From contig JAHDYJ010000004.1 in the NCBI GenBank assembly GCA_023383795.1, positions 22,603-86,602 on the forward strand: DNA of 64,000 nt, in the 5' to 3' direction. The position numbers and the translations under genes are program-made. This document shows, one piece after another, positions 8,316 through 30,874 of this stretch. The DNA comes from Burkholderiales bacterium (GTDB lineage: Bacteria > Pseudomonadota > Gammaproteobacteria > Burkholderiales > SG8-39). The notes beneath the pieces are model-generated. The model was given only the letters and a program-made list of their open reading frames with translations. It was not told the DNA's origin and did not search any database. Every line of letters begins with the position of its first letter. Within the stretch, counting starts at the first letter, position 1.

Positions 8316-9536
8316 CTAGCGCGCAGCCTCCGCCGTCGTGCACTCGTCCGGCGCACCGGCCGGCGGAATCACGCGTGCCGGCGCGCGGGCGCTCAGCGAC
8401 TCGAGGAACGCGACCAGATCCTCGGACTCCTGCGGCGTGAGCCTGAGCGGGCGCAGGATCCGCTCGCCGTCGGCGTGCAGCCGATCCTCGTCGAGCTCCG
8501 AGTAGTGCCGGACCACATCGCGCAGCGTCGCCAGGCGCCCGTCGTGCATATACGGCGCCGTGCGCGCGACCTCGCGCAGTCCGGGCACCTTGAACTCGCC
8601 GAAGTTGCGGTGCTCGAGGGCCACGTGGCGCGTCCTGCTCGCGGCCGCGCCGCTCGCATCGTCGCTGTACGGCCCCAGCAGGTTGCGCGGGTCGGCGAGG
8701 AGCTGCCTGATCCCGCCGTGGCGCCCCGGGTCGACGCGGCCCGGGGCGACGAAGTACGGCACGCCGACGTCGGCGAACTCGCCGTTGGTGAATGCCGGCC
8801 CGAAGTGGCAGAAGCTGCAGTTGCCCCGCCCGACGAAGAGGGCGAGTCCGCGCCGCGCGGCCGCCGGGTAGGCTGCCGCGGCGGCGGCATCGCCGCGCGC
8901 GAGCGCGTCGCGGAACTCGTCGAACGGCGTGCGTCCGGTGACGAGCGTCTCGAGGAACGCCGCGAGCGCCTTCCCGGCGTCGACCAGCAACGCCTCGGCG
9001 TCGGCGCCGGCGAGCCGCGCCGCGCCGAACGCGCGCTCGTAGCGGCAGGCGAGCGCCGGGTCGGCGCGGATCAGCCTCGCGACGTGCGCCGCGTCGGCGG
9101 CGAGCTCGAGCGGGTGCACGATCGGCTTCACGCTCTGCAGCCACAGGCTGTCGGCCGCGCCGTCCCAGCCGAACCAGCGCGCGAGCCCGACGTTGAGCAC
9201 GCTCGGCGTGTTGCGGTCGAGCAGCGCGCGGCCGCGCGCGCGCGCCCGGCCGTCGGTGAAGGCGCGCCCGGGAACGTGGCACGCGGCGCACGAGAGGGCG
9301 CCGTCGAGCGCGAGACGCCGGTCGAAGAAGAGGCGCCGCCCGAGCGCGATCGCGTCCGGCTGCCCCGACGCGCGGTTGCTCGGGTCGCGCAGCACCGGCT
9401 GCGGCCACGGGCCGTGCTGCAGGACGCGGCGCACCTCGGGCCCGGTGAGCCCGGTCGCGCCGGCCGGCGGCGCGAACGCGAGCATGGCCGCCGCGAGAAG
9501 CGGCGCGCCCGCGCGCGCGAAGGCGCCGGACCTCAT
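8316..9536 (-). CDS. Di-haem cytochrome c peroxidase family protein (CcpA/MauG-like), secreted
   Basis: Start chosen at MRSGAFARAGAPLLAAAMLAF (signal peptide). Two haem motifs, CAACH and CSFCH. Conserved RNTPS, GWDG and PYMHDG blocks. Confidence 0.85.
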   Translation of the reverse strand: MRSGAFARAGAPLLAAAMLAFAPPAGATGLTGPEVRRVLQHGPWPQPVLRDPSNRASGQPDAIALGRRLFFDRRLALDGALSCAACHVPGRAFTDGRARARGRALLDRNTPSVLNVGLARWFGWDGAADSLWLQSVKPIVHPLELAADAAHVARLIRADPALACRYERAFGAARLAGADAEALLVDAGKALAAFLETLVTGRTPFDEFRDALARGDAAAAAAYPAAARRGLALFVGRGNCSFCHFGPAFTNGEFADVGVPYFVAPGRVDPGRHGGIRQLLADPRNLLGPYSDDASGAAASRTRHVALEHRNFGEFKVPGLREVARTAPYMHDGRLATLRDVVRHYSELDEDRLHADGERILRPLRLTPQESEDLVAFLESLSARAPARVIPPAGAPDECTTAEAAR

Positions 9537-9961
9537 TCGAGCGGCACGTCGCGGACCGCGCGCTCGACCTCGGCGCCGGCCTCGACGTCGAACACGATCT
9601 GCCAGCGTCCGGGCATGTGAAAGAGCAGCCCTTCGGCGCGGTAGCGCGCGCCGCCGGCCGATGCGACGGTCGCGCGGTAATTCATGCCGTGACGATGCTC
9701 GGGCATGTGCGCGTCGACACGCAGCCCGGTCGGCCGCGGCGCCGCCCGCTTCGGACAGACCTCCGCGTCGAGCGCGAACGCCCGCCCGACCGCGATCGGC
9801 GCGGGCGCGGGCCGGAAGGCGACCACGTAACGGGCGGATTCGGCGCGCTCGACGCCGGCGCCGAGCCGCGCTCCGCACGGTTCGGCCGCCGCGGCTGCGA
9901 GCGGCAGCGCGAGCAGCGGCGGCACGGCGAGGCGACGCGCCAGGGCGCGCGCGCCGCTCAT
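9533..9961 (-). CDS. Small secreted His/Met-rich protein, YtkA/FixH-like Ig-fold domain
   Basis: 142 aa with a signal peptide. Motifs DAHMPEHRHGMNY and FHMPGRWQIVF. ATGA overlaps with both neighbours (9958-9961 and 9533-9536). Confidence 0.6.
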   Translation of the reverse strand: MSGARALARRLAVPPLLALPLAAAAAEPCGARLGAGVERAESARYVVAFRPAPAPIAVGRAFALDAEVCPKRAAPRPTGLRVDAHMPEHRHGMNYRATVASAGGARYRAEGLLFHMPGRWQIVFDVEAGAEVERAVRDVPLE

Positions 9962-10803
9962 CCGCCGGCGCCGCCCTGCGGCGAGCGCTGCCGGTCGAAC
10001 GCGCCGCCGATCACCGCTTCGCCGTTCCTCCACGCGATGCGCTCGGCGACCTCGCGCGGCAGATCGGCGAGCCATTCGCGCGACCAGCGCGCGTGCTCGG
10101 GCAGGTAGTGCCAGCGCTCGGGAACGTAGGTGTCGGTGCCGACCATGAACCGGTCGGGGAACTCGAGGAACGCCGCGCGCCACTCCGGCACCACCTTTCC
10201 GCCTGCCGCGTGGTCGGTGCGGAACGCGAGGTCGGCCCAGAGGTTCTGGTGCTTGCGCAGCATCTCGCGCACGCGTTCCGGGCGCTCGAAGCCGGCGTGC
10301 GCCCACAGGATGCGCGCCTGCGGCCACTGCGCGAACAGCCGCTCGACCGCGTCGGCGTCCGAATGCGCGTGCAGCATCAGGCCGTACTCGCGGGCGAGCG
10401 CGACCATGCGCCGCGGCACCGGCAGGTCGGCGTCCGCGCCGAACAGATGGAATTCGCCGATCGCGACGAACCGGTAGCGGCGCAGGCGCTCCTCGAGGTA
10501 GCCGACGATCGCCTCGTCGCGCACCCAGGTCGCGATGTCGCCGCGCGTGCGGTATGGCCGCAGCTCGGGCACGACGAGGTCGGGCGCGGCCTCGTAGAGC
10601 ATCTGGGTGCCCTGGTCGTTCGAGCTCGACACCAGCGCGCGCTTGAGGCCGGCCTTGCGCATCAGCGCGACCGCGTCCTTCGGCGGCACGGTCTCCCACG
10701 CGTCGTGGCTGTAGTGCACGTGGGCGTCGAACACCGGCAGTTCGGCGCCGGCGGCCGCCGGCGCGAGCACGGCGGCGATCAGGGCGAGGACGAGCTTGGG
10801 CAT
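9958..10803 (-). CDS. Secreted metal-dependent amidohydrolase (TIM-barrel) family protein
   Basis: Signal peptide MPKLVLALIAAVLAPAAAGA followed by the FDAHVHY metal-binding HxH motif. Later HAHSD and WAHAG blocks. Confidence 0.8.
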   Translation of the reverse strand: MPKLVLALIAAVLAPAAAGAELPVFDAHVHYSHDAWETVPPKDAVALMRKAGLKRALVSSSNDQGTQMLYEAAPDLVVPELRPYRTRGDIATWVRDEAIVGYLEERLRRYRFVAIGEFHLFGADADLPVPRRMVALAREYGLMLHAHSDADAVERLFAQWPQARILWAHAGFERPERVREMLRKHQNLWADLAFRTDHAAGGKVVPEWRAAFLEFPDRFMVGTDTYVPERWHYLPEHARWSREWLADLPREVAERIAWRNGEAVIGGAFDRQRSPQGGAGG

Positions 10804-10956
10804 GGTCGGGGCTCCTGGGTCGGGCGCCGGGCGGGGCGCAGCCGCGCGCCCGGGCCGCCGCGCCCGGCCTTGCGTTCGTGTGATCCGGACGGTGGTTGGG
10901 GTCGCGGCAGGCCGATAGTATAGGCGCCCCGAAATCCGGCCCGGCCGGCGCGATCG

Positions 10957-12315
<1,359 letters not shown>

Positions 12316-12482
12316 AACGCCTTCCGCGCGGGCGCGTTGGCCGCCGCCAACACGCAATTCGCTTTGAAATCCATTGCTTAGAGGAGAGGCCGGCGCCGGT
12401 GTTGGCATTCGCGAACAGGCGGGACGCCCATCCGCGGCCATCGTGCTCCCACAACACCTTGTTTCATTGATGGTTTCTTTTC

Positions 12483-12497
12483 TGGCACGGAAGTTGA
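12483..12497 (+). promoter_or_regulatory. Candidate sigma54 (-24/-12) promoter upstream of small secreted protein gene
   Basis: TGGCACG-gaag-TTGAT versus consensus TGGCACG-N4-TTGCW (one mismatch, at the -12 C). About 87 nt upstream of the ATG at 12584 and directly downstream of a sigma54 activator gene. Confidence 0.45.
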
Positions 12498-12583
12498 TGT
12501 GTCCGGTGCAAGCACCCGCGTCGATTCCGCGAGGAACGAGACGGGACACCGGACGAACGCCGACAACCCGAGGAGAGAGAACC

Positions 12584-12958
12584 ATGAAACGCACCATCGC
12601 CACGCTGCTGACCGCTACTGCGGCCGCCGCCCCGCTCGCCGCCACGAGCGCCCTCGCCGCCGAGCCCGCCGTGCAGGTTGCGATGCTCGCGCCCGCGCAC
12701 GAGGTCCATCCGCAGGCGTATGGTTCGCGCGGGGTCGCGCTCGCCCCCGAGCAGATCGTGACGCCCTACTCCGGCGTCGCCCAGGCGATGAGCGCGCGCT
12801 ACACGCCGCTGCCGGGGTTCGCGCAGATGCTCGCCGATCCGGCCGCGGAGAAGCTCAAGGCGCAGCGCGCGGCATCCCGGCGCGAAGTGCTTCGGTACAG
12901 CATCGACGTGCGCGACCCGCGCCTGCAGGGCTGGGTGAACATGCTCGCGGCGAACTGA
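12584..12958 (+). CDS. Small secreted protein of unknown function
   Basis: GGAGAGAGA Shine-Dalgarno sequence. Signal peptide MKRTIATLLTATAAAAPLAATSALA. 124 aa. I recognise no family. Confidence 0.6.
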   Translation: MKRTIATLLTATAAAAPLAATSALAAEPAVQVAMLAPAHEVHPQAYGSRGVALAPEQIVTPYSGVAQAMSARYTPLPGFAQMLADPAAEKLKAQRAASRREVLRYSIDVRDPRLQGWVNMLAAN

Positions 12959-12980
12959 CGCCCGCCCCTCACCCCCACCC

Positions 12981-13012
12981 CGCCCGGGCGCGCCGCGCCG
13001 CCCGCCCGGGCG
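12981..13012. terminator. GC hairpin between convergent genes (possible bidirectional terminator)
   Basis: The self-complementary decamer CGCCCGGGCG occurs twice (12981-12990 and 13003-13012), allowing a 10-bp stem with a 12-nt loop. There is no clear U-tract. Confidence 0.35.
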
Positions 13013-13013
13013 T

Positions 13014-13382
13014 TCAGCGCCCGGCCAGGCGCCGCGCGACGAGCGCCCGCAGCGCGTCGAGGTCGAAGGGCTTGGTGACGTAGTCGTGGGCGCCGAGATC
13101 GAGCCCGAGCTTGCGGTGGTCGCGCTCGGCGCTCGCGGTCAGGAACACGAACGGGATCGCCGCGGTGGCCGGATCGGCGCGCAGCGCGGCGAGCACCTCG
13201 AAGCCGTCGAGCTCGGGCATGCGCACGTCGCACAGGATCAGGTCCGGCCGCTCGGCGCGCGCAGCCGCGAGCCCCTGCCGGCCGTCGGCCGCCTCGATCG
13301 CCTCGTGCCCCTCGAGCCGCAGGAAACGCCGCAGGTTCGCGCGGATCTCCGCCTCGTCCTCGATGATCAGGATCCTAGCCAT
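13014..13382 (-). CDS. Single-domain CheY-like response regulator
   Basis: 122 aa. ILIIEDE...LILCDVRMPELDG...TKPF receiver motifs. The start overlaps the kinase stop by 8 nt. Confidence 0.9.
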   Translation of the reverse strand: MARILIIEDEAEIRANLRRFLRLEGHEAIEAADGRQGLAAARAERPDLILCDVRMPELDGFEVLAALRADPATAAIPFVFLTASAERDHRKLGLDLGAHDYVTKPFDLDALRALVARRLAGR

Positions 13383-16300
13383 GGGCCGCGTTCGGCAGGG
13401 TCACCGTGAAGCGCGTGCCGCGCCCCGGGGCGCTCGCCAGCGCGATCGTCCCGCCGTGCAGGTCGACCGCCTTCTTCACGATTGCGAGCCCGAGGCCGGT
13501 GCCGGCGATGTTGCCGACGTTGCGCGCGCGGTGGAAAGTCTCGAAGAGATGCGGCAGGTCTTCCTCCGGGATGCCGATGCCCGCGTCGGACACGGTGAAG
13601 ACCGCCCGCTCGCCGTTGCAGGTCACCTCCAGCGCGACCGGCGCGCCGTCGGGCGAGTACTTGAGCGCGTTCGAGACGAGGTTGCCGAGGATGTGCTGCA
13701 GCAGCCGCTCGTCGAAGCGCGCGCCGCCGCACGCGCCCGCGAAGCGCAGCGCCACCCGTGAGGGCGCGCCCGCGGCGTGCCCGTCCGCGTGCTCGGCCTC
13801 GCGGATCACGCGCCGGCAGAGCGCCTCGACGTCCACCGGCCCGGGCTTGAACTCGAGCCGGCCCGCTTCGGCGCGGCCGATCACCAGCACCTGGTCGAGC
13901 ATGCCGGCCATGCGCCGGACCGAGTTGCGGATGCTGCCGAGGAGCTCGGTGCGCTCGCCCGGCGCGAGCCGCTCGCCGTAGTCGCGCAGGAGCTCCGCCG
14001 ACGAGAGGATCGTGGCGAGCGGCGTGCGGAATTCGTGCGAGGTCATCGACACGAAGCGGGACTTGAGGTCGGAGAGCTCCCGCTGCTTCTCGAGCGCCAC
14101 GCGCATGCTTTCCTCCGCGGCATGGCGCCGCGTGACGTCCACCGCGGTCCAGATCACGCCCTGCTCCGGCCTGCCCGGGTAGAGGCTCGCGCCGTAGAGC
14201 TCGAGCCACATGCGGGATCCGTCCTTGCGCCGCACGGGCAGCTCGGCGGCATACGTGCCCGCCGCGGCGAGCGCGGCGTAGGCCTCCCCGCCGAACCGCT
14301 CGAAGCTCGCGTCGTCCTCGAAATGGAGCCGGCTCGTCCGGCCGATCAGCTCGTCGGCGGCGTAGCCGGTCATCTCGCAGAACCGCGGATTCACCCACAC
14401 CCGCCGCCGGTTCACGCTGAACGTGATGCCGACCAGCGTGTTGTTCAGGATGGCCCCGCGCTCGGCCGAGGTCCGCTGCACCGCGTCCTCGAGGGCCTTG
14501 CGGCCGGTGACGTCCACGAACGTCCAGATGGTGCCGCGCGCGAGATCGTGGCGGTCGATCGCCTGGCCGTGGAGCTCGACCCAGATGAGCGTGCCGTCCT
14601 TGCGCCGCATCCGGCACTCGGTGCTGTAGGCGCCGTGCGTCGCGATCCGCGGATAGGCCTCCCGCCCCAGCGCCTCGTGACTCGCGTCGTCGGGAAAGTG
14701 GATCCGGCTCGAGTTGCCGACGAGCTCGGCCGGCTCGAAACCGAGCATCTCGGCGAAACGGCGGTTCACCCACTGGTGCACGCGGTTCACGCTCAGCGTG
14801 ACGCCCACCAGCGTGTTGTTGAGGATCGCCTCGCGCTCGCTCGACGCGCGCCGCAGCTCGGCTTCCAGCAGCTTGCGCGGCGTGATGTCGCGCACCACCC
14901 AGACGCGGCCTGAGCGCGGGTCGCGCGGATCGGTGAGCTTGCCGGAGGCGAGCACCCAGACGAGCGACCCGTCGGCCCGGCGCAGCTGCACCTCGGCCTC
15001 GTATGCGCGCCCGGTGCGCGCCGCGGCGAGCACGGCGTCGCGCATCCGCTCGAACTCCGATCGCGACAGGAAGATCGACTCCATCGTCCGTCCGATCTGC
15101 GCCGTCCGATCGACGGCGAAGAGCTGCTCGGCCGCCCGGTTCAGCCACTGGACGCGCGCCTCGGCGTCGACGAAGATGATGCCGACGATCGAGTTCTCGA
15201 GAATCAGCTCGCGCTCGATCAGGGTGCGGCGCAGATCCTCCTCGAGCCGCACCCGGCGGGTGACGTCGGTGAAGAGGTTCAGGCTCGCCGGGCGGCCGCG
15301 CCAGTCGACCTCGACGCTCTTCACCTCGAGCACGACCCAGTGCCCGGCGCGCGTGAGCAGTCGCAGGTGCCGGACGTGGTCCGCGCCGGCCACGGCGGCG
15401 TGATCGATGCGGCGCACGCCGCGCAGCGCCTCGGGGCGGTCGTCCGGATGCACGTATTCGAGGAACCAGTGCCCGACGACCTCGTCCGGCGCGTAGCCGC
15501 TGATCGCGAGCACCCGCGGGTTCGCGAACACCATCAGCTGATCCTGGACGATGACGATCCCCTCGGTCGCGTTGTCGACGACGCTGCGGTACTGCTCCTC
15601 CGAGCGGCGCAGCGCGTCCTCGGCGGTGCCGCGCGCGAGCGCGTTCGCGCGGAACACCTGCAGCATGCGCGCGAGATCGCCCACCTCGTCCGGCGCGGCG
15701 GGCTCCTCGACGTCGCGCGAGAGATCGCCGGCCGCGAACGCGGCGACCGTGCCCATCAGCGCGCCGAGCGGCCGGCGGATCGATCGGGCGATCGTCCAGC
15801 TCGTCGCGGCCCCGGCCGCGATGACGAGCGCGGCAAGGGCACCCAGCATGGCGAGCGCGAACGCGCGCTCCCGCGCGTGGGCCGCGCGCAGCGCCATCCG
15901 GCGCTCGTCGCTCTCGCCGAGGATGGACTCGATCAGCGCGGTGAGGCGCCGCGCGCCGAGGTCCACGTCCTCGTCGAGCACGCGGCGCTGCCGCTCGAAC
16001 ATCGCGGCGAGGTGCTCGAGCTCCTCCTCCAGCGCGCGGGTGCGCGCGCCGATCGCCGCGAGCGCCTCGCGCTGGAGCTCGGTCGCGGCGAGATCGAGCA
16101 TCACCGGGACCGCGCTCGCGATGCGCCCGAGACTCGCCTTCGCCTCGGCGCGCGAGCCGGCGTCGCGCCGGAGGTAGAAGGCGTTCAGGTTCAGCATCGC
16201 GCCGACGAACGCCTCGTGGGCCTTGCCGAGCGACGGGGCGAGCAGGTCGGTGCGCTCGACGCGCAGCGTCCCGCGGATGATCGCGAACAGCCCGGACGTC

Positions 16301-16791
16301 TCGCGCCCGGCCTTGAGGACGCGCGCCTCGTAGGCGCCGATGATCTGCGGATCGAGCTCGACCAGCGCGTCGAAGCCGGCGACGAGCTGGCGCAGCGCGG
16401 CCCGCGCCGCACGCAGCCGGCCGCGAATGCCGGGGTCGGGCAGCGCGCTCTCCTCGATGCGCCGGCCGAGATCCTCGCCGAGCCGGCGCACTTCGGCCTG
16501 GAGCGCCGGCTCCGGCCGGACGAAGTATTGCCGGACGAGCCCTTTCAGCCGCTCGCTGTCGCGCTCGATGCGCTGCAGCTCGAAGTCGAGCGCGTACCGC
16601 GCCTCGAGCCGGCGCTGGAAGCGCTCCTGCGCGGCCTCGTGGCGCCAGGCGAGCCCGAGCAGCACGCAGGCGATGGCGAGATTGACGCCGAGCAGCAGGA
16701 AGATGCGGCGGCGGATCGGGATCCGCCGCAGCCAGGCCTCGACCGCGCCGGGGCCGGCGGCGCTGCGCGCGCGGCTCATCGGCGGCCGCAC
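13375..16791 (-). CDS. Membrane sensor histidine kinase: periplasmic region, HAMP, four PAS domains, HisKA, HATPase_c
   Basis: TM segments flank a ~270-aa extracytoplasmic region. PAS3 and PAS4 are close paralogues (ILNNTLVG.T.SVNR...WVN.RF.EM.G...EL.G..SR.HF.DDAS). H-box SHEFRTPL. G-box GTGLGLAIVK. Confidence 0.9.
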   Translation of the reverse strand: MRPPMSRARSAAGPGAVEAWLRRIPIRRRIFLLLGVNLAIACVLLGLAWRHEAAQERFQRRLEARYALDFELQRIERDSERLKGLVRQYFVRPEPALQAEVRRLGEDLGRRIEESALPDPGIRGRLRAARAALRQLVAGFDALVELDPQIIGAYEARVLKAGRETSGLFAIIRGTLRVERTDLLAPSLGKAHEAFVGAMLNLNAFYLRRDAGSRAEAKASLGRIASAVPVMLDLAATELQREALAAIGARTRALEEELEHLAAMFERQRRVLDEDVDLGARRLTALIESILGESDERRMALRAAHARERAFALAMLGALAALVIAAGAATSWTIARSIRRPLGALMGTVAAFAAGDLSRDVEEPAAPDEVGDLARMLQVFRANALARGTAEDALRRSEEQYRSVVDNATEGIVIVQDQLMVFANPRVLAISGYAPDEVVGHWFLEYVHPDDRPEALRGVRRIDHAAVAGADHVRHLRLLTRAGHWVVLEVKSVEVDWRGRPASLNLFTDVTRRVRLEEDLRRTLIERELILENSIVGIIFVDAEARVQWLNRAAEQLFAVDRTAQIGRTMESIFLSRSEFERMRDAVLAAARTGRAYEAEVQLRRADGSLVWVLASGKLTDPRDPRSGRVWVVRDITPRKLLEAELRRASSEREAILNNTLVGVTLSVNRVHQWVNRRFAEMLGFEPAELVGNSSRIHFPDDASHEALGREAYPRIATHGAYSTECRMRRKDGTLIWVELHGQAIDRHDLARGTIWTFVDVTGRKALEDAVQRTSAERGAILNNTLVGITFSVNRRRVWVNPRFCEMTGYAADELIGRTSRLHFEDDASFERFGGEAYAALAAAGTYAAELPVRRKDGSRMWLELYGASLYPGRPEQGVIWTAVDVTRRHAAEESMRVALEKQRELSDLKSRFVSMTSHEFRTPLATILSSAELLRDYGERLAPGERTELLGSIRNSVRRMAGMLDQVLVIGRAEAGRLEFKPGPVDVEALCRRVIREAEHADGHAAGAPSRVALRFAGACGGARFDERLLQHILGNLVSNALKYSPDGAPVALEVTCNGERAVFTVSDAGIGIPEEDLPHLFETFHRARNVGNIAGTGLGLAIVKKAVDLHGGTIALASAPGRGTRFTVTLPNAAHG

Positions 16792-16818
16792 CGCGGACGA
16801 CGCGGCGTCACCGCGGCG

Positions 16819-17796
16819 CTACGGCGCCATCGCCCGGATCCGCTCGAGCATCGCCTTCAGGCGCGGATCCCTGACGTGCCGCTCGTACATCGGCCGCACG
16901 CGCTCGGCGAGCTCGCGCATCGCCTCGGGCGCCGGCCGGATCACCACGACGCCGGCGGCGCGCACGCGCGCTTCCGACTGGCGCTCGCGCTCGCTCCAGA
17001 GCTCGCGCATGCGCCGCACCGACTCGGTCGCGCACCGGCGCACGAGCGCGCGGTCGGCCGGCGCGAGCCGCTGCCAGCGGGCCATGGACATCACCAGCAC
17101 CTCCGGGGCCATCGAGTGCTCGGTCAGCGTGTAGTGGGGCGCCACGCGAAAGTGGCCCGAGCTCTCGTAGGAGGGCCAGTTGTTCTCGGCGCCGTCGACC
17201 AGCCCGGTCTCGAGCGCAGTCATCACCTGGCCGTAGGGCAGCCCGACGCCGCGCGCACCGAGCGCGGCCACCAGGTCCACGAAGAGCTGCGACTGCTGCA
17301 CCCGCAGCTTGAGCCCGCGGAAATCGTCCGCCGCGCGCACCGGCCGGTCGCGGGTGTAGAACGAGCGTGCCCCGGAGTCGTAGAACGCGAGGCCGACCAG
17401 CCCGTGGCGCTCGAACGCGGCCAGGATCTCCGCGCCGACCGGCCCGTCGAGGGCGCGGCGCATGTGCTCGGTCGAGCGGAACAGGAACGGCAGCGACGGG
17501 ATGACCGTCTCCGGGACGACGTCGTTGAACGGCGCGAGGTTCACGCGGTTGAGATCGATCGCGCCGCTGCGGGTCTGCGCGATGGTCTCCTTCTCCTCCC
17601 CGAGCTGGCGCTCCGCGAACACCCGGATCCGGTAGCGGCCGCCGGAGCGCGCCTCGAGACGCTCGCCCATGTACAGCACCGCCTGCACCGTCGGGTAGCC
17701 CGCCGGATGGGTGTCGGCGGCGCGCAGCGTCGTCGCGCCCGACGCCGCGGCCGAGCACAGGCCGAGCAGGACGCCCAGGCCGATCACGCGTTTCAT
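16819..17796 (-). CDS. TRAP-type periplasmic solute-binding protein (DctP family), orphan
   Basis: Signal peptide. DctP-family blocks (LRAADTHPAGYPTVQA, FAERQLGEEKETIAQTRSGAIDL, FYDSGARSFY). No dctQ/dctM genes nearby. Lies 27 nt upstream of the kinase gene. Confidence 0.85.
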   Translation of the reverse strand: MKRVIGLGVLLGLCSAAASGATTLRAADTHPAGYPTVQAVLYMGERLEARSGGRYRIRVFAERQLGEEKETIAQTRSGAIDLNRVNLAPFNDVVPETVIPSLPFLFRSTEHMRRALDGPVGAEILAAFERHGLVGLAFYDSGARSFYTRDRPVRAADDFRGLKLRVQQSQLFVDLVAALGARGVGLPYGQVMTALETGLVDGAENNWPSYESSGHFRVAPHYTLTEHSMAPEVLVMSMARWQRLAPADRALVRRCATESVRRMRELWSERERQSEARVRAAGVVVIRPAPEAMRELAERVRPMYERHVRDPRLKAMLERIRAMAP

Positions 17797-17892
17797 CCGC
17801 CCTCCTCGGGCAGGAGCCTAGCGCCGGCCCGCGGGCGGACGCTTTGACCTGCCTCACGCCGCGCCGCGGCGGCGGTGCGGACGAGCCCCGGC

Positions 17893-19203
17893 CTAGGAGA
17901 AGACGTCGTTCATCAGGTTGAAGCCCCAGGCGACCGCGAACAGCGCCTCTTCGGTCGACACCTCGCTCGACACGCCGCCGGCGCCTTTGACCGGGAGCAT
18001 CGTCTTCTGCGCACGGTCGTAGCGGTGCACCGAGGCGACGTGAATGACCTCGCGCGCGCCGACGAAGCTGTAGCACGTGTTCGCGATGATGGGATCGTCG
18101 TTCACCGGCGTGCCCGAAATGAGGGCGGCGACCGCGCCGGCGCAAACCTTGGCCTGCTGGTTCGCCATGTGCCCGGACTTCGGCATTCCGGGCGCCGCGG
18201 CCACCGAATCGCCGATGACGTGGATGCCGCGTGCGGCCACCGACTCGTAGGTCAGGAAACCGACCCGACACCAGCGCTCGTTCGCCGCGACCAGGCCGGC
18301 CTGGTAGGCGATGCCCCCCGCGCGCTGCGGCGGAATGACGTTCAGGCAGTCCGCCCGCACCTCCCCTTGGAGATCGAACTTCATGACCCCGCGGGTCGCG
18401 TCCACCGCTTTCAGGTCGGCGTTCGGGACGTATTCCACCATCCCCGGATACCGGGTGCCCCACACGTGCGAGAAGAGCGCCTTCTTGGACTGGATGTCGG
18501 GATTGGCGTCGAACACGAGCACCTTGCCCTTCGGGTTGCGGGTCGTCAGGTACGACGCGATCATGCTCGCGCGCTCGTACGGCCCCGGCGGACAGCGGAA
18601 CGGCGCCTTCGGGATGTGGATCGCGACGACGCCGCCCGGGGGCAGGTCCGCGATGCGCTTGCGCAGCAGGAGCGTCTGCGGGCCGGCCTTCCACGCGTGC
18701 GGCACGCGCTCCCGCGCCGGCTCGGTCTGGAGGCCGGCGATGTCGTCGTAGACGAAGTCGACGCCGGGTGCGACGATCAGGCGATCGTAGGCGATGCGCT
18801 CGCCCTGGTCGGTGCGGACCTCGCGCCGCGCCGGATCCACCTGGGTCACCGTGGCGTGCACCAACTTCACGCCGTGCCGCTCGGCGAGACGTCCGTAGTC
18901 CCGCTTGAGATCGCGCAGGCTGAGCGATCCGGCGAGCACCCGGTTGCTGAGCGGGCACGAGATCCACTCCCGGTTCGGCTCGATCAGAACCACCTCGATC
19001 TCCGGCGCCCACACCCGCAGGTACTTCGCCGCGGTCGCGCCGGCGAAGCCGCCGCCCACCACGACGACCGTGGCCCGGGACGCAGCGCGCAGCGCGCGCG
19101 GCCAGAAGCCGGCTGCAAGCCCGGTCGCGGCAAGCGTGTGCAGGAAGTTTCTGCGCGTCGGGTCCATCGCGTGCTCCTCCGCTGGGGTGTGGACCGTCGT
19201 CAT
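17893..19203 (-). CDS. fccB: Flavocytochrome c sulfide dehydrogenase flavoprotein subunit (FccB/SoxF-like)
   Basis: Tat leader TRRNFLHTLAATGL. FAD fold VVVVGGGFAGATAAKYL. The start at 19203 overlaps the fccA stop (ATGA). An alternative ATG lies at 19167. Confidence 0.85.
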   Translation of the reverse strand: MTTVHTPAEEHAMDPTRRNFLHTLAATGLAAGFWPRALRAASRATVVVVGGGFAGATAAKYLRVWAPEIEVVLIEPNREWISCPLSNRVLAGSLSLRDLKRDYGRLAERHGVKLVHATVTQVDPARREVRTDQGERIAYDRLIVAPGVDFVYDDIAGLQTEPARERVPHAWKAGPQTLLLRKRIADLPPGGVVAIHIPKAPFRCPPGPYERASMIASYLTTRNPKGKVLVFDANPDIQSKKALFSHVWGTRYPGMVEYVPNADLKAVDATRGVMKFDLQGEVRADCLNVIPPQRAGGIAYQAGLVAANERWCRVGFLTYESVAARGIHVIGDSVAAAPGMPKSGHMANQQAKVCAGAVAALISGTPVNDDPIIANTCYSFVGAREVIHVASVHRYDRAQKTMLPVKGAGGVSSEVSTEEALFAVAWGFNLMNDVFS

Positions 19204-19511
19204 GGCTTGACCCTCGAGAAGTACTCGGAGATCTGCCTCAGCTCTCCGTCGGAGTAGCCCTTCGCGTGCTGGTGCATCACCGTGGCCGGACGCTCTCCGC
19301 TCTTGAAGGCGAGCATCAGGGTGTAGAGCTCGTCCGCCTTGCGTCCGGCGATCGGCGGCATGCCGCCTTCGGAGCGCCCTTCGGTGCCATGGCACGCCGC
19401 GCAGCTCGCCGCCCACTGGCGCACCTTGTGCTGGTCGCTCTGCGCCAGCGCCGGCCCCCAGGCCACCAGCGCGGCCAGCACCCACGCGGTGCTTCCACTG
19501 TTCCGCGTCAT
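19200..19511 (-). CDS. fccA: Monohaem cytochrome c subunit (FccA/SoxE-like)
   Basis: 103 aa. Signal peptide. A single CAACH motif. Translationally coupled to fccB. Confidence 0.8.
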   Translation of the reverse strand: MTRNSGSTAWVLAALVAWGPALAQSDQHKVRQWAASCAACHGTEGRSEGGMPPIAGRKADELYTLMLAFKSGERPATVMHQHAKGYSDGELRQISEYFSRVKP

Positions 19512-19694
19512 CGGGTTCTCCCTGTCGGATGTCGTCTCATTGCACCCTTGCAGTCACGCACATCATGCGCCGCAGCGCAACAGATCCGGGCATGCAAGCG
19601 TGATCGAATCGGCTTCCGAGGCGTGCGCGGCAAGAGAAATGAATCTCATGTGCCGAAGTCCGGACAGCGCGGTTCGTGCGGCGCCCGGCAGCGG

Positions 19695-21788
19695 CTAAGC
19701 CGTGAGCCGACGGTACACGCCCGCAACCTGCAGCGGCAGCCGCCGCACGTCGTCCACCAGGACGAAGTTCGCCGCGCCGTACATGTGGGGCAGGTAGGCT
19801 CGCGCCTGCTCGTCGATGGTGATGCAGAACGGATGGACGCCGGCGCGGCGCGCCTCGACGAGCGCCTGGCGCGTGTCCTCGATCCCGTACTCCCCGCGAT
19901 AGCCGTCGCCGAAGTCGTCCGGCTTGCCGTCCGAGAGCGTCACGAGCAGGCGCGTGCGCGCGTCCTCGGCGGCGAGCATGCGCGTGATGTGGCGGATCGC
20001 AACGCCCATGCGCGTGTAGTCCTGCGGCATGATTCCGGCGATCCGCGCCTTGACCTCGGCGCCGTAGGGCTCGTCGAAACGCTTGACGCGGTAGAGCTCG
20101 CAGCGCTTGCGGGTCATCCCCGAGAAGCCGTAGATCGCGTAGCGGTCGCCGAGCACCTCGAGCGCCTCGCACAGGAGCACGAGCGCCTCGCGCTCGGCGT
20201 CGTTGATCCAGCCCTTGGTCGAGCCGCTCATGTCGACCAGGAACATCACCGCGATCGAGCGCTCGGTCCGGTGCCGCCGCACGAAGAGCCGCTCGGGCAG
20301 CTCGCGTCCCGCGGCGGCGTCGGCGAGCCCGGCCACCGCGGCGTCGAGGTCGATGCCGTCGCCGTAGGGCTCGCGCCGGTGCAGGCGATCCTCGCCGCGC
20401 AGCGCCTCGAACGTGCGCTTCAGGCTCGCGATCTGCGGCCGGTAGCGCTCCAGCGTGCGCCAGACGAAGGCGGGGTCGCCGGGATGCACGTCGCGGCTGC
20501 GCAGGACGCACCAGCCCCGCCGGTAATGCCGCCGCGCGTAGTCCCATTCGTCGTAGACCGCCGCGCCCGCCTCGGCCTCCGCGGCGCCGTCGTCGCCCGC
20601 CGCGCCGGCCGGGGTGCTCGGCGCGTAGGCGCCCGCGCCGGCGGGCTCCAGGTACTCCGGCGGCAGCGTGCCGAGATCCTGCAGGATCGATTGCATCAGG
20701 CTCGCGGCGTCGGCCGGCGGCGAGACCGCCGCGCCGTCGAGGAAGAGCTCGACCGTGCGCTCGCCGGTCGCGGCGGACTCCGAGACGCGCGCCTCGAAGC
20801 GGCCCGGCCCCGCGCCCGGCGCGCCGCCCTCCTCCCGCTCCGCGTCCCGCAGGCCGCCGAGCAGCGCGCGGAAGGTTTCGCGCTCGCGTCCGATCCGTGC
20901 CTCGCGCACCTCCTGCGCCCGCTCCGGATGCAGGCGCACCACGTAGGGCCACGCGGGCGGCGCACGCGCGAGGTCGACCGCGCCGAGCGCGGCAAGCGTT
21001 GCCTCGAGCGGCGCGTCCGGGTCGGCGAGCGGCGCCGCCGCGGCCGCGACGCGCGCGTCGGGGGCGGGCTGCTGCAGCACGCGCATGTCGCGCGCCAGTC
21101 CGGGCAGCGCGCGCTCGAGCTTCGCCCCGAGACGCACCGCCTCCAGGAACGCGAGCCAGCGCCGCACGCGGGCCGGATGCGCGCTCGCCTCAACGGCGGC
21201 CCCGAGCGCCGGCGCGAAGGTTTCGAACCGGCACTGCGCCCACGCGAGCGCCGCCATCGCCTTGTAGACGAGGAAGTTGCGGTTGCGCGCCGCGTACAGC
21301 GTCACCTCGTGCGGCAGGTACACCGTCTCCGTGTCGGTCCAGGGCTCGTCGGCCGCCGCGACCCGCAGGCGACGGCCGGAGAGACCCCACAGGAAGAGCT
21401 CGAGGACGCGGCCCGCGTCCTCGAAGCGCACGGCGTCGGCCTGCGCGTCCCAGGAGCGCACGAAACCGGTCAGGTCCTTGAGCGCCGCGCTCGCCGCGTA
21501 CATGCTGCCATGGTCGTACACGTCCATCGCCTGCACGAGCCAGGCCTCGGCGCCGCGCTCGCCGAGCACCGCGAGGGCGCGCGGGGCAGCGGCGGCGAAC
21601 TGGTAGGCCAGCTCGGCGCTCGAGCGCGCGACGACGCCGGCCCAGTGCAGCACGAAGTCCTGCTGGCCCCGTTCGAGCGCGGCGAGACCGGGCACGAGCG
21701 CGGCGGCGGTGCGGCGTGACGAGAGGCAGGCCTCGAGCAGGTCCTCCAGGCGCTCTTCGAGCTCGGAAGCCGAAAGCCGTGCGTTCAT
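19695..21788 (-). CDS. VWA-domain protein of the CbbO/NorD family
   Basis: 697 aa. C-terminal von Willebrand A domain with MIDAS-like VMFLVDMSGST. Lies immediately downstream of a CbbQ/NorQ ATPase gene. Confidence 0.8.
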   Translation of the reverse strand: MNARLSASELEERLEDLLEACLSSRRTAAALVPGLAALERGQQDFVLHWAGVVARSSAELAYQFAAAAPRALAVLGERGAEAWLVQAMDVYDHGSMYAASAALKDLTGFVRSWDAQADAVRFEDAGRVLELFLWGLSGRRLRVAAADEPWTDTETVYLPHEVTLYAARNRNFLVYKAMAALAWAQCRFETFAPALGAAVEASAHPARVRRWLAFLEAVRLGAKLERALPGLARDMRVLQQPAPDARVAAAAAPLADPDAPLEATLAALGAVDLARAPPAWPYVVRLHPERAQEVREARIGRERETFRALLGGLRDAEREEGGAPGAGPGRFEARVSESAATGERTVELFLDGAAVSPPADAASLMQSILQDLGTLPPEYLEPAGAGAYAPSTPAGAAGDDGAAEAEAGAAVYDEWDYARRHYRRGWCVLRSRDVHPGDPAFVWRTLERYRPQIASLKRTFEALRGEDRLHRREPYGDGIDLDAAVAGLADAAAGRELPERLFVRRHRTERSIAVMFLVDMSGSTKGWINDAEREALVLLCEALEVLGDRYAIYGFSGMTRKRCELYRVKRFDEPYGAEVKARIAGIMPQDYTRMGVAIRHITRMLAAEDARTRLLVTLSDGKPDDFGDGYRGEYGIEDTRQALVEARRAGVHPFCITIDEQARAYLPHMYGAANFVLVDDVRRLPLQVAGVYRRLTA

Positions 21789-21857: not shown

Positions 21858-22670
21858 TCAGAAGACCGAAGCGACGAGCTCATTCAGCGCAGCGAGCGTC
21901 TCCGGTTCGTCGGTGAGCGGCTCTGCGATCGCCGCAAGACAGGCCGTGCGCGGCGCCACGCCGAGCATGACCAGTTTGCCGGCGTGCACCAGCAGCCGGG
22001 TGCTCGCGCCTTCGTCGAGGCCGTTTCCCTTGAGGTTGCGCGTCATGCCCGCGAGCCGCACCAGGCGCTCGGCCGTGCCCTCGTCGACGCCGGTCTCGTG
22101 CGCGACGATGCGGCGCTCCAGCGCCGGCTCCGGATGCCCGAACTCGATCGCGACGAAGCGCTGCCGCGTGCTCTGCTTGAGCTCCTTCAGCACGCTCTGG
22201 TAGCCGGGGTTGTAGGAGAGCGCCAGCAGGAACTCGGGCGGCGCGCGCAGGACCTCGCCGGTCTTCTCCACCGGCAGGATGCGGCGGTCGTCGGCGAGCG
22301 GGTGGATCACGACGGTGGTGTCCTTGCGCGCCTCGACGATCTCGTCCAGGTAGCAGATCGCGCCGAGCCGCACTGCGGCGGCGAGCGGGCCGTCCACCCA
22401 CACCGTCTCGGCGCCGATGATCAGATAGCGGCCGACGAGATCCGACGCGGTCAGGTCGTCGTGGCAGGAGACGGTGACGAGCGGCCGCCCGAGCCGCCAG
22501 GCCATGAACTCCATGAAGCGCGTCTTGCCGCAGCCGGTCGGCCCCTTGAGAAGCACCGGCACGCGGCTCGCGTGGGCCGCCTCGAAGAGGCGCACCTCGT
22601 CGCCGACCGGCTCGTAGTAGGGCTCGGATCTGACGAGGTACTGGTCGGCGCTGTGGGCGCGGGTGTCCAT
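21858..22670 (-). CDS. MoxR-class AAA+ ATPase of the CbbQ/NorQ family
   Basis: [26 protein letters not shown]...[13 protein letters not shown] (Walker A), with the typical CbbQ/NorQ N-terminus. The track ORF start at 22724 lies inside a repeat array and was rejected. Confidence 0.85.
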
Positions 22671-22676
22671 GACGAA

Positions 22677-22771
22677 GTGGACAGTGGACAGTGGACAGTT
22701 GGCAGTTGGCAGTTGGCGGTTCAACGAAGCCTAGGCACGCGCATCGCTCCGTCTGCTGCCCACTGCCCACT
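22677..22771. repeat. Heptamer-repeat inverted repeat (CAGTGGR class), copy D
   Basis: GTGGACA x3 followed by GTTGGCA x3 (22677-22719). The opposing arm is CTGCTGCCCACTGCCCACT (22753-22771). It fills the ykgJ-cbbQ spacer and ends 6 nt from the cbbQ ATG. Confidence 0.8.
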
Positions 22772-22777
22772 TTCTTT

Positions 22778-23677
22778 TCAGTCGTCCAGGCTGTCGTACA
22801 TCCGGTCCTGCTCGGCGGCGCGCCTCGCGGCCGCCTCGCGCTCGGTCGCCTCGACCTTGTCCTTGTAGCGTGCGAGGCGCCGCGCGGCGGCATCCCGGCG
22901 CAGCGGAATCGACATCTCGCCGAACAGCGTCTGGCGCAGGAAGCGCATCGCGAACGAGAGCAGCGTCTCGTCGTCGCTCGCGATCGCGCGCAGAAGGCCG
23001 GGCTCGAGCTCGAAGAGCTCCTGGAAGCCGGGGCTCATCACGAACGCACGGAAGCCGTCGACGTCATAGCTCGCGAGGAAGAAGAGCTCGAGGCTCTTCT
23101 GCGACGGCTTGCCGATCGCCGGCCCGCCCGAGCGCTTCTTCAGGATGATGCGCCGCCATTCCCGGTTCGCCTCGTCGTACGGCTCGAGGCCCTGCTCCCG
23201 GCGGTACTCGCGCACGGTCTGCTCGTGCGGCTCCTGGTGCCCGAGGCAGTGGGCCTCCTTCACGACGAAGTACGCGTCCTCGTCCGCGGCCGACTCCTTC
23301 CGCCGCATCGACATCAGTCCGAGCGCGTAGTAACGGCACGCCGAGGGCCGGTCCTCGTAGACGCTGCAGCCTTCGGGCGTGAGGTAGATGCACTCGTTCG
23401 AGCCCTCCTTCGTCTTGAGCTTCAGCCCCGGCATGCCGTGCCCGTCCATCTGGAAGTCGCGCGTGTCGCGGTCGATCCACTCGCGCGCCGGGAGGTCGAA
23501 GCGTCGCTTCAGCCGCAGCACGTCGTAGGGCGTCAGCATGATGTCGATGTTCCGGCAGCACTGATTGAAGCATGCAATGCCTTTATGGCAGCGGAAGCGG
23601 AACTTGTCAGCCAGGCCGAGCTGCACCGGCTGCACCGGCGAGACGGGCACGGGATCGCGAATGTCTTCGGGGGTCAT
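22778..23677 (-). CDS. YkgJ-family (UPF0153) cysteine-cluster protein
   Basis: CHKGIACFNQCCRN (CxxCxxCC-type cluster) plus the later CIYLTPEGCSVYEDRPSACRYY, typical of the YkgJ zinc/iron-binding family. Confidence 0.8.
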   Translation of the reverse strand: MTPEDIRDPVPVSPVQPVQLGLADKFRFRCHKGIACFNQCCRNIDIMLTPYDVLRLKRRFDLPAREWIDRDTRDFQMDGHGMPGLKLKTKEGSNECIYLTPEGCSVYEDRPSACRYYALGLMSMRRKESAADEDAYFVVKEAHCLGHQEPHEQTVREYRREQGLEPYDEANREWRRIILKKRSGGPAIGKPSQKSLELFFLASYDVDGFRAFVMSPGFQELFELEPGLLRAIASDDETLLSFAMRFLRQTLFGEMSIPLRRDAAARRLARYKDKVEATEREAAARRAAEQDRMYDSLDD

Positions 23678-23886
23678 CTGGGCAGAAAAGCTGCAACAGC
23701 GGCCGGGCCAAGCTACCCGAGGGCCCGTCCGATGTCCAGCGGCGCGCGGGGTCGGTCCGCCGCGGGGTCGAGCGCGCTCGCCCGCCGTCGGCGCCGGGGG
23801 CCTCGCCGCGGATTTGGCAGCTTTCGTTCGTGCCCGGTAGGATTACGGCTGCGAACGCTGCAGTCGGCGAGACAGAGGAAAAAAAC

Positions 23887-25173
23887 ATGAAGCGCACCCG
23901 CCCCTTGTCGCTGGGCCTCGGCAACGTCAGCCAGGCCGATCTGGAGGCGGCACCGGACCGCACGCCGCGCGCCGCCCGCGCGAGCGGCCTCGACCGCTCG
24001 CTCTGTCGCGCCCTGCTGCGCGCGGCCGGCAGCCCGCCGGTTGCGCTCCGGCTGTGGAACGGCGAGGTCGTCTCGACCGCGGATGCCGCCCCGGTCGCGA
24101 CGGTCGTGCTGCGCGACCGCGGCGCGCTCTATCGCCTGATCCGGAACCCGGATCTGCATTTCGGCGACCTCTACAGCGTCGGGCGGATCGACGTCGAAGG
24201 CGACTTCGTCGCGTTGCTGGAGGCGATCTATCGCGGCATGGGGCACCTGCACGGCAATGCGCTCGTGCGCCTGCGCGAGCGGCTCACGAACCGCCCGCGC
24301 GTCAACACCCTCGCCGGGTCGCGCGAGAACATCCACCACCACTACGATCTCGGCAACGAGTTCTACCGGCTGTGGCTCGACACGGCCGCGATGCAGTACA
24401 CCTGCGCCTACTATCCCGACCCGGCGATGTCGCTCGAGCAGGCCCAGGTCGCCAAGCTCGACCACGTCGCGCGGAAGCTCCGCCTCAAGCCCGGCGACCG
24501 GGTGGTCGAGGCCGGCTGCGGCTGGGGCGGGCTCGCGCGGCATTTCGCGCGGAGCTACGGGGTCACCGTCCGGGCGTACAACATCTCGAGCGAGCAGGTC
24601 GCCTTCGCGCGCGAGCGCGCCCGCGACGAGGGCCTCGCGGACCGCGTCGAGTACGTGCTCGACGACTACCGCAACATCGAGGGCAGCTACGACGTGTTCG
24701 TCTCGGTCGGGATGCTCGAGCACGTCGGGCCCACGAACTACGGCACGCTCGGCGACGTCATCGACCGCTGCCTCGCGCCGCACGGTCGCGGCTTCATCCA
24801 CTCGATCGGGCGCAACCGCCCGGGCAAGATGAACGCCTGGATCGAGAAGCGGATCTTTCCCGGCGCGTACCCGCCGTCGCTCGGCGAGATGATGGCGATC
24901 TTCGAGCCGCGGCGGTTCTCCGTGCTCGACGTCGAGAACCTGCGCCTGCACTACGCGCAGACGCTGCGCCACTGGCTCGAGCGCTTCGAGCGCAACGCGG
25001 GGACGATCGAGGACATGTTCGACCCGTTCTTCGTGCGCGCCTGGCGGCTCTACCTCGCCGGCTCCATCGCGGCCTTCACGACCGGATCGCTGCAGCTCTT
25101 CCAGGTCGTCTTCGCCCGCGGCGCCGACAACGAGCTTCCCTGGTCGCGGGCGCACCTGCACCCGCAGGCCTGA
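23887..25173 (+). CDS. cfa: Cyclopropane-fatty-acyl-phospholipid synthase family methyltransferase
   Basis: HYDLGNEFYRLWLD, SAM motif VVEAGCGWGGLA, FVSVGMLEHVG, IEKRIFPGAYPPSL and YLAGS.AAF are all canonical Cfa/mycolic acid methyltransferase blocks. Confidence 0.9.
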   Translation: MKRTRPLSLGLGNVSQADLEAAPDRTPRAARASGLDRSLCRALLRAAGSPPVALRLWNGEVVSTADAAPVATVVLRDRGALYRLIRNPDLHFGDLYSVGRIDVEGDFVALLEAIYRGMGHLHGNALVRLRERLTNRPRVNTLAGSRENIHHHYDLGNEFYRLWLDTAAMQYTCAYYPDPAMSLEQAQVAKLDHVARKLRLKPGDRVVEAGCGWGGLARHFARSYGVTVRAYNISSEQVAFARERARDEGLADRVEYVLDDYRNIEGSYDVFVSVGMLEHVGPTNYGTLGDVIDRCLAPHGRGFIHSIGRNRPGKMNAWIEKRIFPGAYPPSLGEMMAIFEPRRFSVLDVENLRLHYAQTLRHWLERFERNAGTIEDMFDPFFVRAWRLYLAGSIAAFTTGSLQLFQVVFARGADNELPWSRAHLHPQA

Positions 25174-25226
25174 GCGTCCGGCCGCGCCGCGGCGCGGGCG
25201 ATCCGGAGCGGCGTGCAACGCGCGCC

Positions 25227-25260
25227 GGGAAAGCAAACGGGGCCCGGCGTACCGGGCCCC
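25227..25260 (-). terminator. Intrinsic terminator downstream of aprA (sited between convergent cfa and aprA)
   Basis: Perfect 9-bp stem GGGGCCCGG-cgta-CCGGGCCCC (25239-25260). On the minus-strand RNA it is followed by GUUUGCUUUCC. Confidence 0.6.
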
Positions 25261-25289
25261 GCTCGCCTGTCCTGGAGGACGCGGCGCCG

Positions 25290-27206: not shown

Positions 27207-27262
27207 GTTGCTTCCTTTCAGTCCGGCTGCGCCCGACTCCGGGGCGCCCTGCCGGGGAAACT

Positions 27263-27378
27263 GTGATGGGTGATGGGTAATGGGTGATGGGTGATGGAAA
27301 TCCGTCCTCTGCAGACCGGTCGGGGGTAATCAGGGTGGGGCGTCGCGCCCATCACCCGTCACCCTTCGCCCATCACCC
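27263..27378. repeat. Heptamer-repeat inverted repeat (GGGTGAT class), copy B
   Basis: Left arm of five heptamers GTGATGG GTGATGG GTAATGG GTGATGG GTGATGG (27263-27297). 50-nt spacer. Right arm CCCATCACCCGTCACCCTTCGCCCATCACCC (27348-27378) abuts and overlaps the aprB stop codon. Confidence 0.85.
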
Positions 27379-27857: not shown

Positions 27858-27906
27858 CGTGAATCGTGAATCGTAGCTCGTGAACCGCGGATCGCAAGTC
27901 GTCGAA
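27858..27906. repeat. Degenerate period-7 array (CGTGAAT class), copy C
   Basis: CGTGAAT CGTGAAT CGTAGCT CGTGAAC CGCGGAT CGCAAGT CGTCGAA: seven consecutive heptamers each starting CG(T/C), located in the sat-aprB spacer. Confidence 0.6.
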
Positions 27907-30805: not shown

Positions 30806-30874
30806 TCAGTGGGCAGTAGCCTGCAGTTCACTGTCCACTGCTCCCTGCTCCCTACCCACTGCCCACTGTCCACT
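30806..30874. repeat. Heptamer-repeat element (CAGTGGG/CACTGYC class), copy E
   Basis: CAGTGGGCAGT (30807-30817) pairs perfectly with ACTGCCCACTG (30858-30868). 30829-30874 is a run of 6.5 heptamers: CACTGTC CACTGCT CCCTGCT CCCTACC CACTGCC CACTGTC CACT. It fills the whole convergent spacer. Confidence 0.8.

Follow-up and report, generated by a model that had tools for sequence, protein, structure and literature searches.

REP elements stabilize mRNAs, and they are obstacles to terminating ribosomes when they lie close to a stop codon, as known from the malE-malF and REP background. Hairpin elements with heptamer arrays are already known from Xanthomonas, Geobacter and Coxiella. Paired GGGAATC or GGGGA(C/T)T heptamer arrays are enriched in the non-coding DNA of Xanthomonas and Nostoc (Rehm et al. 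2015, PMC4692102). Each Xanthomonas genome holds 70-75 convergent array pairs able to form stem-loops. On the coding strand the arrays follow stop codons and on the non-coding strand they precede start codons, in either case within 50 bp; they are scarce between divergent genes and vary in unit number (PMC4692102). In the 23S intervening sequence (IVS) of Coxiella burnetii a 28-bp terminal stem contains tandem GACAGAT heptamers in strain-variable number (Warrier et al. 2016, PMC4990558), and this stem is cut in the middle by RNase III (PMC4990558). Marine Beggiatoaceae carry TAACTGA heptamers a few nucleotides upstream of starts, over the expected ribosome-binding site (MacGregor 2015, PMC4679880). 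There, Shine-Dalgarno sequences are found in ~10% of the repeat-bearing spacers, and a translational role was suggested (PMC4679880). For Geobacter metallireducens, the element descriptions in Aklujkar et al. (2009, PMC2700814) give dozens of intergenic copies with four or five tandem heptamers (GGGACCG; MTYCTGA), which were proposed to be regulatory and some of which are drawn as paired across strands. In these descriptions no analysis of start- or stop-codon position was found.

The locus analyzed here is the spacer between a ykgJ-like gene and cbbQ in a window of 64,000 nt, the whole stretch of DNA under study, from the draft genome G000 (4.93 Mb, 71.5% GC, 234 contigs). We read the hairpin in this spacer, copy D, as a recently inserted copy, ~105 nt long, of a lineage-specific dispersed hairpin element that fills nearly the whole spacer. 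It would be a gene-less relative of PF05635 cassettes with a presumed effect on expression, and not a regulator that evolved for cbbQ. We put the probability of this reading at roughly 80%. The genes concerned are all on the minus strand. The ykgJ-like CxxCxxCC gene (22778-23677; own gene call; Pfam PF03692, E = 3.3e-7) ends with TGA at 22778-22780, and its 3' end is conserved in the sister genome G003. It is followed by the cbbQ/norQ-type AAA+ ATPase gene (21858-22670; ATG 22668-22670; Pfam AAA_5 1.2e-31, CbbQ_C 2.6e-31) and, downstream of cbbQ, by a VWA-domain (CbbO/NorD-like) gene (19695-21788; Pfam VWA). Both gene names used in the earlier note were upheld, by the CxxCxxCC motif and by AAA_5 plus CbbQ_C. 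The cbbQ start position is common to the six genus genomes with the gene (ATG, GTG or TTG, then D-T/A-R); the genus member G002 is without cbbQ.

Read as mRNA, that is on the minus strand, copy D starts right after the ykgJ stop codon with an outer A-rich terminus, AAAGAAA (22771-22777), corresponding to the TGAAAGAAA terminus found before the G-rich arm in many GTGGGCA/GTTGGCA-class copies. The 5' arm, GUGGGCA twice plus G (22756-22770), forms the main stem of the minimum free energy (MFE) fold. The loop holds the subfamily core AGACGGAGCGATGCGCGTGCCTAGGCTTCGTTGAAC (22719-22754), in which 32/36 bases equal the core consensus. On the other side, the inner 3' arm (CGCCAAC, UGCCAAC, UGCCAAC; 22698-22718) can pair with the 5' arm only if one mismatch is accepted in each unit. 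The outer 3' arm consists of three UGUCCAC units (22677-22697), two of which pair with the 5' arm via G.U, and the last with AUGGACA of the cbbQ start. A 6-nt linker, UUCGUC (22671-22676), without Shine-Dalgarno sequence, leads from the element to the AUG. Tandem Repeats Finder (TRF) gave 94-100% matches for the arrays; one arm has 3+3 units, the opposite arm 2.

Most of the layout described in the earlier note was reproduced. On the plus strand GTGGACA is present three times (22677-22697) as claimed. The second set had been given as three GTTGGCA units; its third unit is GTTGGCG, so that 22698-22718 reads GTTGGCA twice plus GTTGGCG. The opposing arm, CTGCTGCCCACTGCCCACT, was confirmed at 22753-22771 of the plus strand. 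Pairing of GUGGGCAGUGGGCAG with CUGUCCACUGUCCAC in the mRNA sense, 15 positions with two G.U, can be read off the sequence, and the stem is also present in the MFE fold; both G.U positions are A.C on the plus strand. It is likewise correct that the spacer measures 107 nt, that the last heptamer of the 3' arm stops 6 nt short of the cbbQ ATG, and that cbbQ has no Shine-Dalgarno sequence, since no run of at least 4 bases of AGGAGG occurs within -18 to -4 of the ATG. The hairpin does occupy the ribosome-binding position of cbbQ.

The sister genome G003 was used for comparison. Its CbbQ is 91% identical, ~40 kb are syntenic with the window, and the alignment breaks exactly at the elements. At the site of copy D, G003 reads GACGAC TGA TCATTCTC TTG GACACC, with a stop-start gap of 8 nt, a TTG start and no Shine-Dalgarno sequence. 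The hairpin had been proposed to replace the ribosome-binding region of cbbQ. This cannot be maintained, because the ancestral-type junction of G003 has no Shine-Dalgarno sequence either, and thus no ribosome-binding site was replaced. Further copies in the window were compared in the same way. Copy A (GTGATGG class, 2520-2633) corresponds to a TGATG stop/start overlap in G003 (6 nt), and copy B (GTGATGG class, 27255-27371, after the aprB stop) to a segment of 11 nt. Copy E (GTGGGCA class, 30806-30874) fills a convergent junction, at which G003 has 274 nt of unrelated repeats. Altogether 21 orthologous junctions were compared, drawing on 1.1 Mb of G003 as the single sister genome for empty sites; a G000-type element was found in 0/21, and 9/21 measured at most 10 nt. 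The remaining G003 junctions hold unrelated sequence, including a palindromic repeat of G003's own, and one has a different heptamer array. Four further cbbQ-bearing genus members have different upstream neighbours and no heptamers at the cbbQ junction.

Filled and empty sites differ by a replacement of 6-12 nt and not by a clean insertion. No target-site duplication was found at the three empty sites in the window or at further ones elsewhere, and no transposase or other insertion mechanism was found for the element family. Compared with a MITE, the element has inverted termini, but no transposase-bearing parent was found; such longer relatives as exist all carry PF05635. At two GTGATGG-class copies the empty G003 junctions hold unit-like sequence, GTGATGG at copy A (2520-2633) and GGATGAGCG at C35:1771-1939. 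Judged from the sequences, this hints at microhomology-guided insertion or local seeding of arrays. The other empty sites have no unit-like sequence.

Several side observations were made in the same alignments. Copy C (27858-27906), between sat and aprB, consists of a single arm of CGTGAAT-type units. The alignment with G003 is unbroken there, so something similar may exist in G003. Two segments of the window, 23746-25289 (~1.5 kb, with a plus-strand gene at 23887-25173) and 8283-19677 (~11.4 kb), have no counterpart in the syntenic G003 contig and are indels between the two species. At like junctions, sister species have palindromic spacer repeats too, but of types of their own. In G005, GTCATTCCCGCGAAAGCGGGAATC-type hairpins lie upstream of cbbQ (L090, ~1370-1500), and several spacers of G003 (L095/L111) contain CCCCTCCT-N6-AGGAGGGG hairpins, with a ~21-nt period in the copy E junction. 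A motif, CGATGCGCGCGATAAT, is conserved 15-130 nt upstream of the cbbQ start in four genus members with different upstream genes (L089-L092) and might act as an operator or as the -10 region of a promoter. G003 is without it, and G000 has only a 10-nt partial match, GCGATGCGCG, inside the subfamily core of the loop. The copy D loop was considered as a relic of the ancestral cbbQ upstream region on the strength of CGATGCGCGCGATAAT and GCGATGCGCG; this was rejected because the subfamily core occurs at seven other loci.

Copy D belongs to a large family in G000. At a TRF score of at least 40 we counted 171 period-7 arrays, 29 of period 8 and 50 of period 6. The intergenic share is 64% for period 7 and 4-22% for other periods, except for the related period 14 (37%). 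The heptamer units of G000 are GTGAACG, GTGATGG, GTTGGCA, GTGGGCA, GTGGACA, GTGAGCG and GTGAGGA. With genes taken from our own simple gene caller (4635 genes, 90% coding), two or more consecutive GTKRDSR units were found in 113 intergenic regions. Both arms are present in 44 of these 113 regions, with the G-rich arm first in 44/44. The element is built as a hairpin whose arms are tandem GTKRDSR-type heptamer arrays; whichever strand is read, the G-rich array comes 5' and the complementary one 3'. The unit class is the same in both arms in 37/44 elements. Duplexes between an element's own arms have a mean of -32.9 kcal/mol, compared with -22.7 kcal/mol for cross-pairings between copies (p = 2e-8).

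A blastn search with the 38-nt core retrieved ~8 copies of the copy D subfamily in G000, which have the non-repetitive core GTAGACGGAGCGATGCGAGCGTCTAGACTTCGTTGAAC in common and termini of the form TGAAAGAAA...TTTCTTTCA. Their order is TGAAAGAAA, (GTGGGCA/GTGGACA)n, the 38-nt core and (TGCCAAC)n(TGTCCAC)n. The 38-nt core had no match in 300 other genomes of the order and matched no JGI metagenome contig; the ykgJ-cbbQ junction as a query in the metagenome scan was also without match. Exact look-ups of CbbQ in other assemblies found nothing, and the ykgJ-like protein led to one Logan contig, which is broken inside the element. Hits to (GTKRDSR)x3 numbered 235 in G000, 27 in one congener and 0-11 in others, with almost none elsewhere in the order. 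The exception is one genome from another taxonomic family, which has GTGAGGA arrays of the same build. Contig ends of G000 (C49:1-55, C150:1-29, C160:1-55) are perfect heptamer arrays, several exactly 55 nt long. Since contigs end in perfect arrays, long arrays break the assembly, and copy numbers are underestimated.

The elements are placed tightly with respect to genes. Divergent spacers hold 7/113 elements, where 17.7 are expected by spacer count (p = 0.002); counted by intergenic bases, p = 1.5e-9. Once the element is subtracted, a median of 11 nt of spacer remains. Both element ends are within 12 nt of the flanking genes in 17/33 co-directional and 10/11 convergent two-armed copies, and the elements sit close to the codons themselves, at 4-10 nt from starts and 5-7 nt from stops. 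The C-rich arm lies at most 12 nt from 37 gene starts, which were positioned by our own gene caller and of which about eight were compared against G003. A Shine-Dalgarno sequence (at least 4 nt) was found at 2/37 of these arm-adjacent starts, compared with 40% genome-wide (p = 2.6e-6), and ATG at 33/37, compared with 68% genome-wide (p = 0.0025). The arrangement seen at cbbQ, with an arm at the start and no Shine-Dalgarno sequence, is thus a family trait, because 37 starts adjoin C-rich arms and nearly all are without one. GGUGAU is complementary to AUCACC at the 3' end of 16S rRNA. GGUGAU units as extended Shine-Dalgarno mimics were considered and set aside, as this would fit one unit class only.

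The family shares with the Xanthomonas type (PMC4692102) the enrichment in non-coding DNA, the convergent arms, the proximity to stops and starts and the depletion between divergent genes. It differs in that G000 units are GTGNNNN and mostly without G3 tracts (copy D has fewer than the at least four G3 tracts of the Xanthomonas type), and in that G000 has several unit classes per genome and non-repetitive subfamily cores. Moreover, Xanthomonas sites are mostly common to two species (PMC4692102), whereas 0/21 junctions of G000 are common with its sister. The 23S IVS with an S23p/PF05635 ORF of Coxiella burnetii and Leptospira (PMC4990558) has a similar long inverted-repeat stem of tandem heptamers, but copy D has a 38-nt loop, no ORF, and lies in an mRNA spacer instead of rRNA. 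RNase III cleavage has been demonstrated for the Coxiella IVS (PMC4990558) and would have to be presumed for copy D, whose stem, at 15-19 bp including two G.U, is short for the enzyme to cut efficiently. Beggiatoaceae resemble G000 in their start-proximal heptamer arrays and in the mostly absent Shine-Dalgarno sequence. In contrast, their arrays are direct repeats of a single A/U-rich unit with one inverted pair in 170 sets (PMC4679880), whereas those of G000 are GC-rich and typically form inverted pairs. The Geobacter metallireducens elements have different units, and in the descriptions given in PMC2700814 some copies are intragenic.

REP/BIME elements of enterobacteria and REPIN-RAYT systems are likewise high-copy extragenic palindromes after stops and inside operons, and rare in divergent promoter regions; G000 has ~113 such regions. 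The G000 stems differ from these in that they are tandem heptamer arrays instead of a fixed 20-40-nt palindrome, abut starts as well as stops, and come with no RAYT that we found. REPIN-RAYT was rejected as an identity of the family: PF01797 (Y1 transposase) had no match in G000, and matches in G002, G006 and 6/14 control genomes. As the assembly is in 234 contigs, the absence of a RAYT from G000 is not absolute. A known RNA family was also rejected, with only chance-level matches in Rfam 15 (mir-449, E = 0.73; sX6, E = 0.46), far below gathering scores. The G000 family is to be classed as paired heptamer arrays, or as gene-less IVS-like hairpins; the kind is known and these members are new.

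The earlier note had interpreted the hairpin as kept by selection on the RNA of the coding strand and as evolved to gate cbbQ relative to ykgJ; the GTTGGCA units were taken to offer weaker alternative registers. Both strands of 22660-22785 were folded, giving -47.7 kcal/mol for the mRNA and -50.8 kcal/mol for the plus strand. The expected higher stability of the coding strand was thus not observed. Copy D folds better than shuffled sequences on both strands (z = -2.98 for the mRNA strand, -2.30 for the plus strand), and on the plus strand the CCCAC arm takes the GUUGGCA units as its partner. What does speak for the gate is the arm-to-arm duplex of copy D alone, at -26.2 versus -18.1 kcal/mol some 8 kcal/mol better in the sense strand, together with an AUG that is paired in the predicted folds at a start without Shine-Dalgarno sequence. 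The subfamily core is also sense-oriented in 3/3 co-directional junctions, plus one contig-end copy. Across the family no folding advantage of the sense strand is seen. Among the two-armed copies between co-directional genes (n=33), the arm duplex was better in sense in 18 and in antisense in 14 (Wilcoxon p = 0.94). Whole spacers (n=31) were sense-better in 13 cases and antisense-better in 18, and their mean bias of +1.9 kcal/mol compares with +2.0 kcal/mol in 150 control spacers. The difference in copy D lies inside the family scatter, so the G.U asymmetry does not support RNA-level selection. Covariation in orthologous spacers, which had been suggested as a check, is not possible because the relatives lack the element. 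Finally, a gate dedicated to cbbQ is contradicted by the presence of the same family at >100 unrelated junctions, and by an orthologous junction without the element in five other cbbQ-bearing genus members. We therefore regard selection for gating cbbQ as quite unlikely.

A DNA-level repeat without a role in expression would arise by replication slippage and intrastrand template switching and be tolerated only at harmless gene ends. Among the long simple-sequence repeats of bacteria, heptamers are the most common, and their origin has been ascribed to polymerase slippage (Mrazek 2007, as cited in PMC4679880). This origin agrees with a family in which neither strand is favoured, the arms remain matched while units differ between copies, long arrays break contigs, no transposase was found, and the native junctions GTGATGG (copy A) and GGATGAGCG resemble array units. 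But non-repetitive cores are common to subfamily members at distant loci, and local slippage cannot be their source. The tight start/stop placement and the ATG excess suggest targeting or selection, and so stable an mRNA hairpin is unlikely to be neutral. On balance we hold this explanation possible but doubtful. A transcription terminator or attenuator is suggested by the full GTGGGCA-class copies, which have an A-tract, hairpin and U-tract (AAAGAAA ... UUUCUUU) in the layout of a bidirectional intrinsic terminator; terminal AAAGAAA/TTTCTTT tracts occur in many copies, and 10/11 two-armed convergent copies fill the entire gap between two stop codons. The plus strand of copy D keeps CCCAC and then TTTCTTTT. 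In the mRNA sense, however, the 3' arm of copy D is followed by UUCGUCAUG and not by a U-tract, a consensus scan of the spacer found no terminator, loops of 40-100 nt are atypical, and the GTGATGG and GTGAACG classes are without A or U tracts, which makes termination a very unlikely function. The heptamer arrays might also be read as G-quadruplexes, given the G3 tracts in GGGTGAT and GTGGGCA units. Four G3 tracts are needed for this; copy D has two in the mRNA and only GG on the plus strand, and the abundant units GTGAACG, GTTGGCA and GTGGACA contain none, so that we consider a quadruplex hardly credible.

Longer relatives of the inserted hairpin were found at PF05635 genes. At C222:55535-56032 of G000, a PF05635 protein (E = 3.4e-34) is encoded within the 440-nt loop of a two-armed copy. 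G000 has just one further PF05635 gene (C223:71443-71931), which lies between GTTGGCA and TGCCAAC arrays, with the unit of copy D, and the sole PF05635 gene of G003 (C76:32630-32836) adjoins a ~19-unit array (18.9 copies, 1282-1413 of L168). Hence all three PF05635 genes of the genus are inside or beside inverted heptamer arrays. Period-7 arrays flank 26/32 order-level and 21/28 phylum-level PF05635 loci, with units that differ by genome, and they are present on both sides at 16 order-level and 11 phylum-level loci. The purine-rich array is on the left of the PF05635 gene, whichever strand the gene is on. Array density in the phylum sample falls from 3.3 per kb near the PF05635 gene to 0.11 per kb farther away. 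CAGTAGG, the cassette unit in another genus, also occurs there without a gene, as short pairs at some ten additional loci in each genome; there, as in G000, cassette arms and gene-less hairpins of one genome are alike in unit type. The loop of copy D consists of ~38 nt of family core, and the PF05635 ORF is absent, so copy D is at most a gene-less relative of the cassettes. Such a kinship is the most likely one.

A more far-reaching view is that gene-less hairpins such as copy D are non-autonomous partners of the PF05635 (23S-rRNA-IVS / Avd-like four-helix-bundle) cassettes. They would share the unit type of their genome and insert precisely between the stop and start of tightly coupled genes, yielding hairpin-bridged, Shine-Dalgarno-less initiation or RNase III processing sites. 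This partnership is a tentative proposal that we think rather less likely to hold than to fail. If true, dozens of operon junctions in one species would have had their translational coupling rewired by one family of elements.

Under our preferred reading of copy D as an inserted element, the insertion would have occurred after the split from the sister species, into a tight junction without Shine-Dalgarno sequence that was presumably translationally coupled. An insertion that postdates the species split did not evolve for cbbQ, and the G.U asymmetry would be incidental. The element is presumably transcribed within a ykgJ-cbbQ-VWA mRNA; scans of the spacer found no promoter and no terminator signal. 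The initiation region of cbbQ would then be covered by the stem and by a small hairpin that the last unit forms with AUGGACA, and free initiation could be lowered. In every predicted fold the AUG of cbbQ is paired with the last UGUCCA unit. Two routes to the start may be envisaged. In one, translation of ykgJ ends at the UGA 7 nt ahead of the stem, and the terminating ribosomes could open the base of the stem and would be set beside the AUG by the helix. Alternatively, RNase III could cut the stem, as in rRNA intervening sequences. When the fold was constrained with a ribosome parked on the ykgJ stop, the main stem was shortened and the AUG was still paired to the last unit, so that the coupling model by itself does not free the start codon. 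Coupling of ykgJ and cbbQ is only moderately supported by this modelling. The hairpin would also protect the 3' end of the upstream mRNA in a REP-like manner, and, by analogy, a role in mRNA stabilization like that of REP elements is equally possible. Start occlusion, coupling to ykgJ termination and RNase III cleavage are most likely by-products, if they occur at all.

For the annotation of this locus, the cbbQ hairpin should not be recorded as a dedicated riboregulator, and its G.U pattern should not be taken as evidence of selection. For the organism, an element is present at about 2-3% of the G000 gene junctions, where it separates stop and start by ~100 nt and, at 37 genes, leaves no room for a Shine-Dalgarno sequence. 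These 37 genes would either use an unusual route of translation, by coupling across the hairpin or after processing, or have lowered expression. The sister species with its empty sites offers a clean natural experiment on the effects of such hairpins, and the family is a possible handle on the unexplained PF05635 / rRNA-IVS family.
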